Shown here: piece by piece, positions 56,389-64,000 of the stretch
How the letters are laid out: every line of letters begins with the position of its first letter
Position numbering within the stretch: position 1 is the first letter of the stretch
DNA from: an uncultured delta proteobacterium
Lineage (GTDB): Bacteria; Desulfobacterota; Binatia; UBA9968
Reading direction: 5' to 3'
Assembly (NCBI GenBank): GCA_963804165.1
Contig: CAWDPO010000002.1
Location: 96,001 to 160,000, forward strand
DNA length: 64,000 nucleotides
Notes under the pieces: model-generated
The model's database searches: none
What the model saw: only the letters and a program-made list of their open reading frames with translations
Told to the model about the DNA's origin: nothing
Position numbers and translations under genes: made by a program

Positions 56389-56689
56389 TAATGGTAAATA
56401 AACAGTTGACATTTTTGTCATAATTGTGCACTTAATGCGTCCGATTATCAGCCGGTCCAAAGTTGAATTGCATTATCTCCAATGAACGTCTTCTTCGACG
56501 GCTTGCAGCCGAACGCCGGCAGCTTGATTGCACTGTCAAGAGCCAAAGATAAAAATTAACAAACCCGATAATGACCGCATGGTTGAGAAACCCGTGTAGA
56601 AAATAGTTGGCAAGATCAAACACAGTAGAGGGTGCAAGAGGAAATAGATGTAACGCCCTATATCCCAAGGCTCACCGGGGGAAGTGTGT

Positions 56690-58235
56690 ATGGCCACCAA
56701 AGCGTTGAACCTATCGAACATTCAAGGAAACATAATCGGGGGCTTCAACAAGGATTTTCAAGACTTTTTGTTTCTACAATTTGCAGGAGCCGGCCATGCG
56801 CGAGCTTGGATCCGTGAAATCTTGAATCCAAAGTTTTCTCCTGGGCTCGCAAACTCAACCAGTCGGAACGTCCTAAAATTCAACGCTCAGTTCAAGGCGC
56901 TACGTGCCGAGGGTATCGAACCGGAAACGGTGATCACCTCTGAATGGACACACCTCGCAATTTCCTTTCTTGGCTTCAAGGCGCTGGGAATCTCCGCTAG
57001 ATCGCTGGCTCGTTTTCCGCGAGCCTTTCGCGCCGGCATGGCCGACCGGAAAAAGATCCTGGGGGACTTGGGTGCAAACGATCCAAAAAATTGGCTGCCG
57101 GCGTTCCAAGCGGGCAATATCCATGCCCTCTTAATCGTGGCCGCCGATAGCGAGGCGCAACTCAACCTCCGAGTTGATGCCTTGCAGAACTCTAGAATTT
57201 TCAAGAACGGAGTCAGAGTGCTCTATCAGGAACATGGCAGAACTCGCGAAGACGAACGCGGGCATGAGCACTTTGGGTTCAAGGACGGTGTATCCCAACC
57301 GGGAATTCGTGGGGTCACGCAGCCAACAGATCCTCTTGGCAATCCCCATTGCGGCCAACCGGGTCAGTCTTTGGTGTGGCCAGGAGAGTTCGTCCTCGGC
57401 TATCCGACGCAGAAACCCAAGCACAAGCCTGGAGTTGATGGCCCCAATCCAGATCCCGGGCCGCTCAGCAGATCGGGCCCCTCCCGGTGGACTACAGACG
57501 GTTCGTATCTGGTATTGCGCCGTTTGCGCAAGATGTGCTCGGATTTCGCAAACAACTAAATGACCTTGCGGAGCCAATGGTCTCACCGAAGATCTGATGG
57601 GCGCAAAACTTATGGGACGCTATAAAAGCGGCTACCCATTGATGCAGCGGGAATTTCATCGTCAATCAGCCATTCCGCCGGGCGCCGATCCAGGGAAGGT
57701 TCTTCCCGCGCTCAACAAGAGTGAAACGCTGAATAACAACTTTAGATTTGCCAATGATCCAAGCGGAGATGTGTGTCCCTTCGCGGCTCATATTCGGAAG
57801 GCGAATCCCCGTGATGAAATTATTTCAGACAATCCAGCGGACAGTGAAAGCCAGGTGCAAACCCACCGGATTTTGAGGCGCGGTATCCCCTTTGGCGCAT
57901 CTCTAGGCGCGCTGCGCGGCGGAGATGCTAATGATCAGCGAGGCCTCCTCTTCGTGTGTTTTCAGAAAGACATACAAAGGCAATACGAGTACGTGCAAAC
58001 CCAATGGATCAATAACATCAACTTTCCTCCGTCTGCTGCTGATGTAACGCCTGGTCCGGACCCAATTGTCGCGATGACTCATGGTGGACGATTTCATCTG
58101 GAGTCAAACAAATCGGCCGTTCACATTCAAAATTATGTCAAAATGACCGGCGGGGAGTATTTTTTTTCTCCGTCGTTGAAGACACTAAAAAAATCGGTCA
58201 ACATAAGATTTAAGGCGCGTCGGAACATCGCATAG
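56690..58235 (+). CDS. DyP-type (dye-decolourising) peroxidase, frameshifts near 57530-57590
   Basis: NIQGNI, EHFGFKDGVSQP (GXXDG), PGEFVLGY, DGSYLVLRRL, AHIRKANPR, RILRRGIPFG and GGEYFFSPS. Confidence 0.9.
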
Positions 58236-58631: not shown

Positions 58632-58709
58632 GCCTCCTGGGCAGAAGCTAACTCGATCAGCCCAGCAGCTATTCCCACACGCGATCTCGGCCACACAACT
58701 GCAGCGGGC

Positions 58710-61700
58710 TCACGGTAGAGCCAAGCTGATGCGGCCGAAAATTGTCCTGGTTGGCTGAATCCGCGGGTTTTTGAAATCCAAGTCGAAATAGTTGAACTTT
58801 TTGTCCAACAAATTAGTTGCACCAATGGTGACAAATCCATAGCGCATCGGCAAGCGCCAATTCAGGGCAAGGTCCAGTGTCCAAAAATCATCGCTGCCGT
58901 TGCGCGAGACTCCGGCTACTTTGAGATTGAATTTTCCGTTTTGATGATAGTAGGTAGGCTGCAAGACAGCGCTCAGGCCTGAAGAGTGAAAAAAGTTCAA
59001 TCCCAGTGGCACTCGATGGGTATTTAGGCGAGCCGGAAAACTAGTCGTGCCTTCTCTGGTGAAATGTTCAAACTGATATTCGGTGCGTAGCGCAAACCAG
59101 GGATGTGGCGTCCAAAAGAAATAGACCCGACTCTGTTGTTCCTCTGCGTCCTGCATTTCCTCCACGAGCTGGCCGTTGTTGTTCAATCTCGTCAACGGCA
59201 CCTTTAGGTTTCTTCCTGAATATTCGATCCCGCCAAAGACTTCCTTGGTAAACTTTTGATCCACAGCGACTCCATAGCGCCACGCCTCGGTTCCATTGAT
59301 ATCATCGAAGAATTGATTGAACCCGGCGACTTGGGTGGGCTCAAGGGTTTGATCGGTTATCAATGTTCGCTTTAGCACGCGAAATGCCGCACCGCGAACA
59401 GTGGTATCGACCCATGGGTTCCAGACAATGCCGAACTTCGGATTGAATTGATCCTTGGATTCGAAATTGCCACCCCTCGTATCGACAAAATCGCCACTGG
59501 CGCCCAGCGTTACAGTCAATGCCTTTGTCGGACTCCAATGGAGATAGTTGTACAAGTTTACATGTTTTTGATCGTCGCTCTCGCCGGGAAAGGCAAGGAT
59601 GTCATCGGGCGGCGGGAGCGGTAACCCGATTGTCGTGAAAAACCGGCCGTTGATCTTCGCATAGCCAAAACCCGAGACGACGTTAAAGTATGTTGAGCGA
59701 TATAGATGCTGAGCTTCCCCCTGAAATAAGTCTTGCGGGTTCTTGAAATCTTGAAAGGTAAACAACGGTAGTAACTGATCGTCTTTCTGAGTAAATCTTG
59801 AGTGTTGAAAAATGAACGAGCCGAGCAATGTCGAATTCGATGTCAACGCGTGCCGGATCCCGAAGCGGGCCGTTTGGCGTTCTTCCCGATTGACTTCCCC
59901 AGGAAAAAAATCGTCGGGAAAAAATCGCAGTCTATTGTCGCCATATACCAGGCTTCGGTAACGATACTCCCCTTGAATGCTTGTGCTAGACGATAGTTCC
60001 GCTTGCACGAATGCATTGCCGATTGAATCTCGCTGGCCGATATTTTTGCGAAAACCATCAGTCTGAAAATGAAACCCCCCTAGGCTAAAGGAGGTCTTCT
60101 TATAAATTCCCGATAAGACTCCTTCCCCCGCGTAAGTGTTATTTTCGCCGGCCAGGCCGGTCGTCTGGAAATTAATCCCATTCCGATTAAACAGCGGATT
60201 AAACTCATTGAACGAGAAAACCGCCGGACCGGCGCTTCAATCAAGAGCAGATCGCTCTCAGCCAACCGCGGCTGAATCGGCGTCATGTTCAATGGCTGGA
60301 GCAATTGCGACTGCAATAGTTCGCTCACCCGGGCGATCTCGTGGCGTGGCAAAACCGAATAAGAGTCCGCAAGAAATCTGTGGGCGGAAAAATTCGTTGG
60401 ATCGGTATTGACCGACTTCCATCCTTCGACCAGCGCAAGCTGCTGAAACCCAAGATCGCTGTAGATTCGACCCAGGCTGGCGCTTCGTGCCGCGAGATCG
60501 GAATCGAGTTGAAGACTTGAGCGGTAGACTGCCCGATTGTCGTTTAACTCGATTGCTTTTTGTATGTCATGCAAAGCCTCGACCGGGCGGTTGGTGGTTT
60601 GCTTCGCAATAGCATCGTAGAACCAGGGTGTGGGATCCTTCGGGTCCAGTTCCTTGGCAATGGCATACTCGCGCTCGTCCCTTGGGCCGCGCTTCTCTTC
60701 AAAATAGGCTTTGCCCAAATAACTTCGGACGATCGAGTTGTTCGGGTCCAGGCTGGCAGCAATTTCAATCTCCCGTCTACCCTCCTGCAAATCACCCTCT
60801 CGGATCTTTGCTAGTCCCAGACCCAGCCTCGGGAGGTAATCGGCTTGGTCAAACTCAATCGCTTTTTCGAAGGCAGCCTTGGCCTCCGTGGTGTTGACCT
60901 GTGTCAGATAAGCGAATCCGAGGACCGTCCGCGTTCTCGACAGGTTTGGATCCAGAGCGACCGCCTTTTTGGCCGCTTCAAGGGCTTCGTCCAGATCGGC
61001 GAATGACATGTGGAGCTCCGCTAACCGCGCCCAAGCCAGGGTGTTTTCCGGGTTTGCTTGTACCGCCTGTTGCAAGCTGGTCCGCGCGCCTTCGAGATCG
61101 AAATTCGCCTGCTGACCGTAGGATAAAGCGATCAGCGCTGACGCGGATTTTGGGTCGCCTTAACGGCCTTCTGCGCGAGTGCAAGCGCTTTTTCCTTGTC
61201 GTTTTGGACAACGGCAATTATCGATTGGAGTGCGATGGCATCGCTGTATTTTGGATCTAAACTCAGTGCCCGCTCAAGATCCGGACCTGCTTCATCGACG
61301 CGCCCTACGGCAAGCAGCAAAGAGGCGCGGTAGGCAAAAAACCGTGGTTCCCGGAGATCGTTAGGCACACCTTTGATGGCCTCAAAGGCCCCCTGAAAAT
61401 CACCCTTCATGTAAGACTCAAGAGAGTTTCGCACCATCCCCTGCCAACCGGGCCCGGCTGGAAATTCCTCCGGGCGTAAATAGAGGGCGGGCGGATAGTA
61501 TAAGGCCCATTGAACTGCATCCCGGGGACGCACAACGGTGCGCAATACGGGAGCTTGTCCTCTTTCGGCTACAGCCGACTGACCATCGGTCAGCGTCACG
61601 CTCCCAGCTTGGTTCGAAGCCAACACCATACCCTCAAAAATCGTTATCAAGGCTCTGTCGGCCTCGACCTGAACCAAGCCCTCGGTTCCCTCCACACCAG

Positions 61701-62094
61701 CGTTGACGAACGCGGTGATGATCTCCAAATTGCGCGGCAGGCGGCTGAAAAAGTAGAGAGCGCCGCGGACCAGCTCGATGAGGGAGGTTCTCTCTTCTCT
61801 CACTCCTCCGAGAGTGATCGTGGTGTCTTGGTTCAGGCGGAGAACGGGTTGATTGACCAACGCAACATCAGCCCGGCTTCTCTCGCCAACCTGAATCCTA
61901 TCTCCTGGGCAATAGCCGTCGTTTAGTCGGGCCGGCTGCCATTGGGTCTGGCCCGCCCGACGAACTTCGACGCTCCCTTGAACAGAGACTAACTTGGCTA
62001 CAGGGGGATCGCAGGTCGTCGCCGCGAAGGACGGAATCGATGACAATAAACTAAGACTCGCGCAGAGCACCGCAATCCGTCGTATTCTGTTCAT
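58710..62094 (-). CDS. Outer-membrane FecR-domain + TPR + TonB-receptor-like beta-barrel protein (NsrA-like), about 1130 aa, frameshifted
   Basis: Signal peptide; FecR-like AKLVSVQG.VEV...GDRI...NAGVEGTE; multiple TPRs; amphipathic barrel strands (QFNPKFGIVW, DLALNWRLP, GATNLLDK). Confidence 0.85.
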
Positions 62095-62408: not shown

Positions 62409-64000
62409 TTATTTTTCGTCTATGGGGATCACGCCCGTCCAAGACCCATCAGGTGGATGCATCCGGTACTCCTTACAAAGTTTAAGGTAGAACAGTGACA
62501 GGCTATCTGCGCCGAGAATATCGATGCATTCATGAAATTTCTTTTCGGCATCGTCCCAAGCGCGCCGTCGGAATGCGCCTAGGGCGTCGGAAAAGATAGC
62601 GCAAGCCTGCTTCTGATTTTCATTGGCATCTTCCGCCCGATCTAGCAATTCGTAAACTACGACCGGCTGTGTCTTACCTCTCAGCAAGAAGCTCCCCGCG
62701 TTTCTCGTCATAAAATCATTTAAATCGTGGACGACCTCTTGAGAAACCAATATCTGAGTCCCTAGATATTTATTTAGACCGTCCAGCCGAGCCACTGTGT
62801 TGACCGTATCCCCCGTAACGCCATACTCATAATGATCCCCGGCGCCCATGTTGCCGAGGTATATTTCGCCGGCGTGGACCGCAATGCGGGTCGGAAGACT
62901 GACGCTCGCAAAGGCCTGATTGAATCGAACGACGGCTTTGGCAAGCCCCAAAGCTGCCGCACAAGCTTTTTTCCCGAGCGTCACGTCCGGACCTTGCGCC
63001 TGCCAGATAGCCAAAATCGAATCTCCCTTGAGCTCAACCACAAGACCGCCGTGTTGCTTGATCGGCTCAAAGGTGGTCTCGAAATACTCGTGCATGAGGT
63101 CGCTTAACTCCCGCGGACCCATCTTTTCCGACAGGTTCGTATAACCCGCAGCATCGGCGAACAAACAAGCACCGTAGACGGTTTGCCCGCCGCGTCTGAT
63201 ATCGACGATGTTTCGCGCCATCTGATTGACCACATCGTTCGGAACATAGTAACCCAACGCATTCCGAATATTCTGCCGTTCTTTGTTGGTTTCGAAATAA
63301 TTTAATAACATGGAGCCGACGATGCCGAGAGGCGTTTGCACAAGGAGCGGAATGACAATCGGATACCAGGTGGCTTCGGCTTTGAACTGATACTCGGCAG
63401 CCGCCAGATAGAGAAGGCTCAAAATCACAACTGCGACCGCAGCCGGTATGGTTCCGGTCGCGCGGCAGATCGTACCGATGACCATACCCCAGACGAGAAT
63501 AATGAAAATGTAGGAATATGAACTGATCGTTTTTACCGGTGAATCTTCGAGAAGATTCGCAAACGCCGTCGCGGCAATTTCCACGCCGCTGATAAATACG
63601 CCGTTGGCTTGTGAATAAACCGTATGGAAGCTGTCCTGTCGTTCCGCGAGCAAGATTTCCGAATATCCGACAAAAACAGCTTTCCCCTTGAGCTCCACCG
63701 GTTTTTTGTCGCCGGAAATTCCACCGGGGCGCAAGGCGTGATTATAGGGGACGGTCGTTAGCGTCCGGGGCGGACCGTAATAATTGAGATAGCGGCGATT
63801 TTCGCCGCCGTACATTCTTACAAGAGACTTGAGCAATCTGTACTTTTCGCCGTGGCTTGCCGCGAGATTCGAGCGCTCCAACTGCGCGATCATTTTCTCT
63901 GAAAGGGTTGGGTCGCTTTCAAAAATTTCCCTTATATCTCTCATGAATTTCGCGACGCCTCGGGCTTGTAGCCCAGTACCGACAGTCCACGGCAGCCTTC
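62409..64000 (-). CDS. CHASE2-domain membrane class III nucleotide cyclase, 5' end outside the window
   Basis: CHASE2 tail (LNYYGP, LKGKAVFVG, SGVEIAATAFANLL), three TMs, catalytic FADAAGYT, ELKGD and GDTVNTVARL; frame stays open to 64000. Confidence 0.9.
   Translation of the reverse strand, partial: RLPWTVGTGLQARGVAKFMRDIREIFESDPTLSEKMIAQLERSNLAASHGEKYRLLKSLVRMYGGENRRYLNYYGPPRTLTTVPYNHALRPGGISGDKKPVELKGKAVFVGYSEILLAERQDSFHTVYSQANGVFISGVEIAATAFANLLEDSPVKTISSYSYIFIILVWGMVIGTICRATGTIPAAVAVVILSLLYLAAAEYQFKAEATWYPIVIPLLVQTPLGIVGSMLLNYFETNKERQNIRNALGYYVPNDVVNQMARNIVDIRRGGQTVYGACLFADAAGYTNLSEKMGPRELSDLMHEYFETTFEPIKQHGGLVVELKGDSILAIWQAQGPDVTLGKKACAAALGLAKAVVRFNQAFASVSLPTRIAVHAGEIYLGNMGAGDHYEYGVTGDTVNTVARLDGLNKYLGTQILVSQEVVHDLNDFMTRNAGSFLLRGKTQPVVVYELLDRAEDANENQKQACAIFSDALGAFRRRAWDDAEKKFHECIDILGADSLSLFYLKLCKEYRMHPPDGSWTGVIPIDEK

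Follow-up and report, generated by a model that had tools for sequence, protein, structure and literature searches.

A CHASE2 receptor cyclase of an uncultured Binatia bacterium with a Glu/Gly base-selecting pair and a possible preference for GTP

A 64,000-nucleotide stretch of DNA from an uncultured Binatia bacterium (GenBank assembly GCA_963804165.1, contig CAWDPO010000002.1, positions 96,001 to 160,000; this whole stretch is referred to below as the window) carries, at its right-hand end and on its minus strand, the gene for a membrane-bound class III nucleotidyl cyclase, here the query. The two positions with which cyclases of this class select the purine base are occupied in it by Glu542 and Gly613, the same pair as in the guanylyl cyclase (GC) Cya2. 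The overall order of the protein is CHASE2 domain, four membrane segments, transducer element, class III cyclase domain and C-terminal tail. It is a complete and probably active receptor cyclase that belongs to the same kind of module as the NsrA-CyaK system of Sinorhizobium meliloti. Whether GTP is the preferred substrate and cyclic GMP (cGMP) the product, with ATP turnover also possible, we regard as an evenly balanced question in which the affirmative is the best single answer. In favor of GTP are the Glu itself, the fact that Lys is absent at its position among close homologs and rare among more distant ones, the tendency of Lys to come back together with Asp, and the contrast with six Lys/Thr paralogues in the same genome; the lack of two Cya2 determinants, the loose constraint on position 542 and the rhizobial cyclic AMP (cAMP) precedent speak against it.

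Domain layout and base-selecting residues

The minus-strand open reading frame (ORF) of the cyclase gene, 62409..63998, runs past the end of the window. The first 220 codons of the gene lie outside it on the same contig, up to contig position 160658, which places the start at the window-equivalent position 64658. In the whole protein, a CHASE2 domain (Pfam match at residues 33-395, 103.5 bits, exceeding its cut-off) precedes a Guanylate_cyc domain (PF00211, residues 498-665, 51.3 bits versus a gathering cut-off of 21.9). Membrane segments were located with a Kyte-Doolittle scan using a 19-residue window; the first hydrophobic segment, residues 1-30, falls beyond the window, and the remaining ones form the block between CHASE2 and the transducer element given in Table 1. 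Within the transducer element, LGYY is aligned with the FGRY motif of Cya2. The C-terminal tail contains residues W701, F708, D718, Y724 and W740, which are invariant in 25 aligned relatives.

The catalytic domain was compared with solved cyclases by means of a phmmer search against PDB chains, in which 45 distinct sequences were matched. The top matches were 6FHT, a Cya2-based fusion (E 3.2e-19), 2W01, Cya2 itself (E 3.8e-17), and 3R5G, Pseudomonas CyaB (E 1.7e-16). In the alignment with 2W01, velkgd of the query pairs with DEFMGD and yeygvtgdtvn with TKYGVVGAQVN; over a longer span, yeygvtgdtvntvarl is set against TKYGVVGAQVNLTYRI. Following the numbering of the residue table in PMC6005667, Glu542 corresponds to Glu488 of Cya2 and Gly613 to Gly562, and the catalytic residues D502, D546, N620 and R624 correspond to D448, D492, N569 and R573, respectively. 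An earlier note on this DNA, made by a model from the sequence, had placed the Glu and Gly codons at 63033-63035 and 62820-62822 and had held both metal-binding Asp residues and the transition-state Asn/Arg pair to be intact. Both sets of coordinates are exact, and the codons read D502, D546, N620 and R624. Since the Cya2 alignment puts Glu542 on Glu488 and Gly613 on Gly562, the Glu/Gly observation stands: these residues, and not Lys with Thr or Asp, sit at the specificity positions, so that the query lacks the canonical adenylyl cyclase (AC) pair of Lys with Asp or Thr. The parallel with Cya2 drawn in the same note also holds: each protein is a membrane cyclase about 750 aa long that combines a CHASE2 domain with Glu/Gly.

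Fifteen further members of the same clade share both residues, and their sources include JGI, ENA, NCBI and Logan. Of the 24 sequencing runs listed, 20 contained part of the stretch, with at most 0.16 of the sampled words in any one of them and no RNA run in the list. Logan contigs of four runs, searched at 90% likeness, spanned approximately 58706-60720 plus scraps, and none lay over 62409-63760. A tblastn search against plasmids returned distant matches only, at 25-35% identity.

Published work outlines how residues at these positions set nucleotide choice. Cya2, whose cyclase is membrane-bound and combines CHASE2 with a Glu-Gly pair, is described as strongly GTP-selective, its Glu being 'assisted by a supporting Lys' and its Gly acting 'in concert with a Tyr' (PMC6005667); the E488K substitution alone turns it into an AC (PMC5995499). 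In the complex of a fungal GC with GTP, the hydrogen bond between Glu and N1/N2 of the base was the sole one seen and was given the major role in specificity (PMC7384201). A Tyr three residues after the Asn position greatly enhanced GC activity, and among mutants of the AC Ma1120 the combination of K-to-E with D-to-G gave the best GC activity (PMC4215837). No BlgC mutations were found in PMC4961389.

Applied to the query, these observations suggest that Glu542 would accept hydrogen bonds from guanine N1-H and N2-H2 and that Gly613 would leave space for the base. Lys544 could give the positive charge that, two residues before the second determinant, is supplied by a Lys in Cya2 and by an Arg in eukaryotic GCs; that Cya2 Lys, at the Arg position of eukaryotic GCs, we take to be the supporting Lys. 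At the level of the whole protein, the periplasmic CHASE2 domain would act through the membrane segments and the transducer element on a catalytically complete cyclase domain with its tail, as expected of an inner-membrane receptor cyclase. Synteny and homology indicate that the input probably comes from the FecR-TPR-barrel outer-membrane protein encoded next to it, as is described for NsrA with CyaK, CyaD1 and CyaD2 in S. meliloti.

Residue states in the close and wider family

In order to place the pair in its family, homologs of the full protein were collected in a search that scored 7999 candidates, 1836 of them at E <= 0.001. The best 120 of these 1836, referred to here as the close family, are all CHASE2 plus cyclase proteins of about 750 aa with 56-84% identity to the query; the few source names given among them are Binatia, 'Deltaproteobacteria' and Methylomirabilota. 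Asp502, Asp546 and Tyr612 are unchanged in 120/120, Asn620 and Arg624 in 119/120 each, and Gly613 in 115/120. Lys is found at position 542 in 0/120. The Glu/Gly pair is present in 17/120, and the rows with Glu542 comprise the 15 most similar to the query (66-84% identity) together with P0028 (65%) and P0058 (61%). Position 544, which is not the canonical AC Lys position, is Lys in 81/120, and the caution of the earlier note that this Lys might restore ATP use is a fair one. Position 623 is Ser in 112/120 and Ala in the other eight. A basic or imidazole residue occupies 542, 544 or 611 in 114 of the 120, and position 542 is polar except in five rows with Gly, a pattern that resembles the acid-base-small triad of GCs. 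The raw counts of the residues at 544 and 611 in the 120 homologs (K-E 68, E-K/R 13, A-E 13, A-R 8, E-E 0) have the look of a charge swap, but a phylogenetically corrected independent-pairs test, for which only five pairs were usable, gave p = 1, so no contact between the two is claimed.

A FastTree phylogeny was inferred for all 120 homologs, with 10 more distant rows as outgroup. Sixteen Glu/Gly rows group together in a single clade (local support 100%), inside which Glu and Gly are both unchanged and whose sister is a clade with Asp/Gly and Gly/Gly. The Glu/Gly pair has two origins on this tree and His/Gly one. Residue states are strongly clustered by clade, with 15 changes for all groups versus a mean of 71.8 after shuffling.

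The wider family was sampled with an HMMER scan of 1.84 billion cluster representatives (50%-cluster set) using the last 287 residues of the query; 68,580 representatives were matched at E <= 0.001, 2,440 of them at E <= 1e-30. The best 150 of these 68,580, mainly CHASE2 cyclases about 750 aa long, were tabulated with the query as 151 rows, and the motif alignment was checked by eye. The pairs at 542 and 613 include Asp/Arg (84 rows), Asn/Arg (14), Asp/Thr and Asn/Ala (8 each) and Gln/Arg (5), and the only Glu/Gly row of the 151 is the query itself. Lys occurs at 542 in three of the best 150 representatives, in two cases with Asp613 and in the third, a 227-aa fragment, with Gly; Asp at 613 is seen solely alongside Lys. 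A scan of one genome per species yielded at least 601 related loci, of which 80 were kept and 77 had a readable cyclase domain. Here the pairs are Asp/Arg (38 loci), Asn/Arg (11), Gln/Arg and Asn/Gly (5 each), Asp/Gly and Gly/Thr (3 each), Glu/Gly (2, loci L058 and L093), Glu/Ala, Glu/Arg and Lys/Asp (1 each, the last at locus L077) and others (7). The hosts of these relatives are Nitrospira, Nitrosomonas, Desulfosarcina, Brocadiaceae, Desulfobacterota, Binatia and many others. The adenine-binding Lys is thus almost entirely given up by the wider family, and Lys/Asp mostly returns as a unit. For this reason positions 542 and 613 are read as still acting together in base choice. The prevailing Asp/Arg pair would itself suit guanine, with the carboxylate contacting N1-H and N2-H2 and the guanidinium O6 and N7; literature searches, which were aimed at other questions, turned up no study of Asp/Arg cyclases.

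The genome that encodes the query contains PF00211 matches in 11 places, and ten of its cyclase domains were aligned to the family profile. Six domains are Lys/Thr and two are Glu/Gly, namely the query and a second cyclase described below. One is Gln/Ala, looks degenerate and has His at the Asn position, and another, divided between two ORFs, shows Asn as its first base-selecting residue in one of them and Thr as its second in the other. Because six Lys/Thr cyclases have been kept in this genome, Glu/Gly is not the default of the organism. The genome also encodes 13 cyclic nucleoside monophosphate (cNMP)-binding domains.

Weighing the substrate of the cyclase

A number of observations weigh against a preference for GTP. 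Two of the Cya2 determinants are missing from the query: TKYG of Cya2 is YEYG, so that Glu611 takes the place of the Lys, and VNLTYR is VNTVAR, with Ala623 in place of the GC-enhancing Tyr. In addition, Ala504 stands at the position of Cya2 Arg450, which the residue table lists among the active-site residues (PMC6005667). Even with Glu, Gly and Tyr together, Ma1120 became only dual-specific, with equal preference for ATP and GTP (PMC4215837, PMC7384201). Within the close family, position 542 is Asp in 55 homologs, Asn in 29, Glu in 17, His in 11, Gly in 5, Ser in 2 and Gln in 1, and Glu542 is not conserved among full-length homologs of 56-65% identity. On the tree, column 542 undergoes 11 changes versus a median of 8 over 181 cyclase-domain columns, and 77 of the 181 change as often or more. 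The unchanged Glu inside its own clade says little, because 98 of the 181 columns are invariant there. Hence Glu is stable within the clade, yet the constraint at 542 is weak for a supposed specificity residue. The closest functional precedent also concerns the other nucleotide: NsrA, an outer-membrane beta-barrel of about 1200 aa, relays a plant signal to CHASE2 cyclases and raises cAMP, according to published descriptions (PMC13001267, PMC7529298). At the locus itself, no cNMP receptor or phosphodiesterase gene adjoins the cyclase gene, and the partner gene in the window, collinear by tblastn with the version at related locus L015, switches frame near 61156 and at 60233-60237. Literature searches found no enzyme assay for any member of the query's family. 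The proposal of the earlier note that the enzyme probably makes cGMP therefore keeps its residue assignment and its Cya2 parallel, but is stronger than the evidence, given the two absent Cya2 determinants and the lack of conservation of the Glu.

The most serious alternative is that the protein is an AC or has at least a preference for ATP, its non-canonical residues being tolerated while Lys544 or other contacts hold the adenine, so that its output is cAMP; we consider this a minority possibility, but one of substance. It draws on much of what has just been set out, since the module is homologous to a pair on the S. meliloti replicon pSymB whose pathway is described as cAMP signaling, position 542 is loosely constrained and two GC-enhancing residues of Cya2 are absent; moreover, the database names of the relatives, all of them automatic, read 'adenylate cyclase' or 'adenylate/guanylate cyclase'. 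Against it, the pSymB cyclase is Lys/Ser and the six paralogues in the same genome are Lys/Thr, and lineages that make cAMP are on this account taken to keep the Lys. None of the 120 close homologs has Lys at 542, and where Lys is seen in the wider family it is paired with Asp in three of four cases. A carboxylate facing adenine N1 would also be unfavorable in the canonical pose.

A dual or promiscuous purine cyclase, in which an open Gly pocket and a lone Glu discriminate little and the products follow the nucleoside triphosphate pools, is in our estimate unlikely. The equal preference of the Glu/Gly/Tyr mutant of Ma1120 for ATP and GTP is a precedent, and low discrimination would fit an otherwise fixed site in which position 542 drifts among Asp, Asn, Glu, His, Gly and Ser. 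Clr, the receptor of the related S. meliloti pathway, also responds to both cAMP and cGMP (PMC10127613). The states of position 542 are, however, clade-specific, as the 15 changes versus 71.8 indicate, and wild-type Cya2, with the same pair, is reported to be strongly GTP-selective. That the product is some other cyclic nucleotide, for example a pyrimidine cNMP, or that the protein is a regulatory pseudo-enzyme, is very improbable: the non-canonical determinants, Ala504 at a listed active-site Arg position and a mention, in PMC10249747, of class III-like cyclases able to make cyclic CMP or cyclic UMP would allow it, but no catalytic residue has been lost and all are conserved, D502 and D546 in 120/120 and N620 and R624 in 119/120, Gly613 would widen the pocket rather than shrink it, and the best PDB matches are purine cyclases.

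Returning to GTP as the substrate, the Glu/Gly enzyme may be one branch of a large, so far unstudied family in which CHASE2 cyclases are coupled to outer-membrane receptors. Individual clades of this family have settled on Glu, Asn or His together with Gly, and most members are Asp/Arg. It is a tentative and rather doubtful extension that the usual output of this family is cGMP, or products that differ by clade, and not cAMP. If the residues still set the product, cGMP signaling would be far commoner among environmental bacteria than one would gather from the few cases on record; experimentally shown bacterial GCs are few, those named in the literature consulted being Cya2, the Rhodospirillum centenum pathway and Xanthomonas XC_0250. 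If a cGMP output is confirmed, a soil lineage would join this list, and cGMP would be tied to a module for sensing across the envelope that until now is known solely as a rhizobial cAMP pathway. The family also provides, ready-made in nature, a series of variants of the base-selecting site (Lys/Asp, Asp/Arg, Asn/Gly, His/Gly and Glu/Gly). With members in the cultured Nitrosomonas sp. Nm132 and Nm34, N. supralitoralis and Desulfosarcina variabilis, the long-standing question of nucleotide choice in class III cyclases is directly testable.

Neighboring genes, further cyclase loci and known systems

Table 1. Features of the cyclase gene and its partner gene, in window coordinates
Feature	Coordinates	Strand	Basis or remark
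CHASE2-4TM-cyclase gene, 3' 1592 bases (529 codons + stop)	62409..64000	-	whole gene = 749 aa
CHASE2 domain, C-terminal part, periplasmic	63474..64000	-	Pfam match residues 33-395 of whole protein
Hydrophobic block 3' of CHASE2, likely three membrane segments (residues 377-425 and 433-452)	63303..63530	-	Kyte-Doolittle
Cyclase transducer element	63219..63275	-	ALGYYVPNDVV aligned with Cya2 TFGRYLTDQVV (6FHT alignment)
Class III nucleotidyl cyclase catalytic domain, residues 498-665	62664..63167	-	Pfam and phmmer
Asp502 (GAT), first metal-binding Asp, FADAAGYT	63153..63155	-	codon read; 120/120 homologs
Glu542 (GAG), at AC Lys / GC Glu / Cya2 Glu488 position	63033..63035	-	codon read and alignment
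Lys544 (AAG), two residues after Glu542	63027..63029	-	Met in Cya2, Ile in pSymB cyclase
Asp546 (GAT), second metal-binding Asp, ELKGD	63021..63023	-	120/120 homologs
Glu611-Tyr612-Gly613 (Gly613 = GGC at 62820-62822, YGVTGDTVN)	62820..62828	-	Gly613 = Cya2 Gly562; Glu611 at Cya2 Lys
Asn620...Ala623-Arg624, transition-state Asn/Arg pair intact (VNTVARL)	62787..62801	-	Ala623 at Cya2 Tyr
C-terminal tail, residues 666-749 (84 aa), conserved	62412..62663	-	no Pfam match
Partner gene, FecR-TPR-beta-barrel outer-membrane protein, about 1130 aa in relatives	58710..62094	-	three reading frames here
Partner ORF, FecR and TPR	61132-62094	-	Pfam
Partner ORF, TPR	60080-61075	-	Pfam
Partner ORF, 432 aa	58710-60008	-	no Pfam match

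The partner gene lies directly 3' of the cyclase gene, and this arrangement is widespread: an ORF for a FecR-like protein directly follows the cyclase at 54 of the 59 related loci with at least 1.2 kb of downstream sequence, and at 38 of the 49 with at least 3.7 kb all three partner ORFs match a single ORF of about 1130 aa. The intact partner at locus L015 comprises FecR, TPR and a TonB-dependent-receptor-like barrel. In the window copy, short A4 and T4 runs are found no more than about 15 bases from the regions of the frame switches, and contigs of 95-97% similar relatives, from two runs, have one extra C after 60237, which gives the frame state of the intact orthologs. The gene for a DyP-type peroxidase, 1 kb further on, is also split, with an N-domain ORF at 56684-57559 and a C-domain ORF at 57597-58235 (plus strand) in different frames. 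It represents a third frame break within 6 kb and therefore points to indel errors of the assembly, which are the simplest reading of both the partner and the DyP splits; the alternative for the partner gene is a real loss, that is, a recent pseudogene.

Elsewhere in the genome, a class III cyclase is split over two frames (L009/L012, C37:108482-109050), positions 9-73 and 82-177 of the Pfam model falling in separate ORFs; this is the domain with Asn and Thr in its two pieces. The second Glu/Gly cyclase is a 399-aa receiver-cyclase on the same contig C37 (L014 10393-11592, minus strand) with the motifs ERFVGD and DYGTVG. In its region (L014 5720-15326, C37:117720-127326) it is preceded on the 5' side by a dCache-HAMP-GAF-GAF-HisKA kinase and followed on the 3' side by a metallo-beta-lactamase-fold protein, a substrate-binding protein and an 889-aa protein in which a cNMP-binding domain is fused to a Na/sulfate-symporter-type transporter. 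The locus looks like a self-contained cyclic-nucleotide pathway, and its cyclase may be a better cGMP candidate than the query gene.

Compared with solved cyclases, the query shares fold and catalytic residues with Pseudomonas CyaB (3R5G), the third-best PDB match, but CyaB has Lys (DKFVGD) and Thr (MDYTIIG) at the positions of Glu542 and Gly613. Likeness to Cya2 is more extensive. The two proteins, of 749 aa and 756 aa, have the same order of CHASE2, membrane segments, transducer element, cyclase domain and C-terminal extension, the extension being likewise uncharacterised in Cya2 (PMC5995499), and they share the Glu/Gly pair, both metal-binding Asp residues, the Asn/Arg pair and a basic residue at the Cya2 Lys608 position (Arg660 in the query). 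They differ, beyond the two determinants and the Arg450 position already discussed, in Lys544, which stands at a Cya2 Met, and in that the query's family is mostly Asp/Arg and tied to a FecR-TPR-barrel gene; the match of the catalytic domains is significant but distant (65.7 bits, E 3.8e-17).

The genetic setting, in turn, resembles that of NsrA with CyaK, CyaD1 and CyaD2, where a FecR-TPR-barrel gene adjoins a CHASE2 cyclase gene as at the query locus; FecR-domain proteins also adjoin CHASE2 sensors in the case of SMc02177 and in a Burkholderia operon. On pSymB of S. meliloti, the single CHASE2 match is a cyclase of 649 aa, and directly 5' of it lies an ORF of 1219 aa with FecR and TPR Pfam matches. 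We take this pair to be nsrA and cyaK, as it contains the only CHASE2 hit of the replicon. Both members are homologous to their counterparts at the query locus, the cyclase at 25% identity (E 1e-23) and the outer-membrane protein with E 1e-17 over the FecR-TPR part and E 6e-11 over the barrel. The gene order differs, being barrel then cyclase on pSymB and cyclase then barrel at the query locus. The base-selecting residues differ as well, the pSymB cyclase having Lys/Ser with an Asp two residues before the Ser, which is of the AC type (DKYIGD and DYSALGD, versus ELKGD and EYGVTGD in the query). Because the pSymB cyclase is Lys/Ser, the studied rhizobial module is of the AC type, and that of the query is not.

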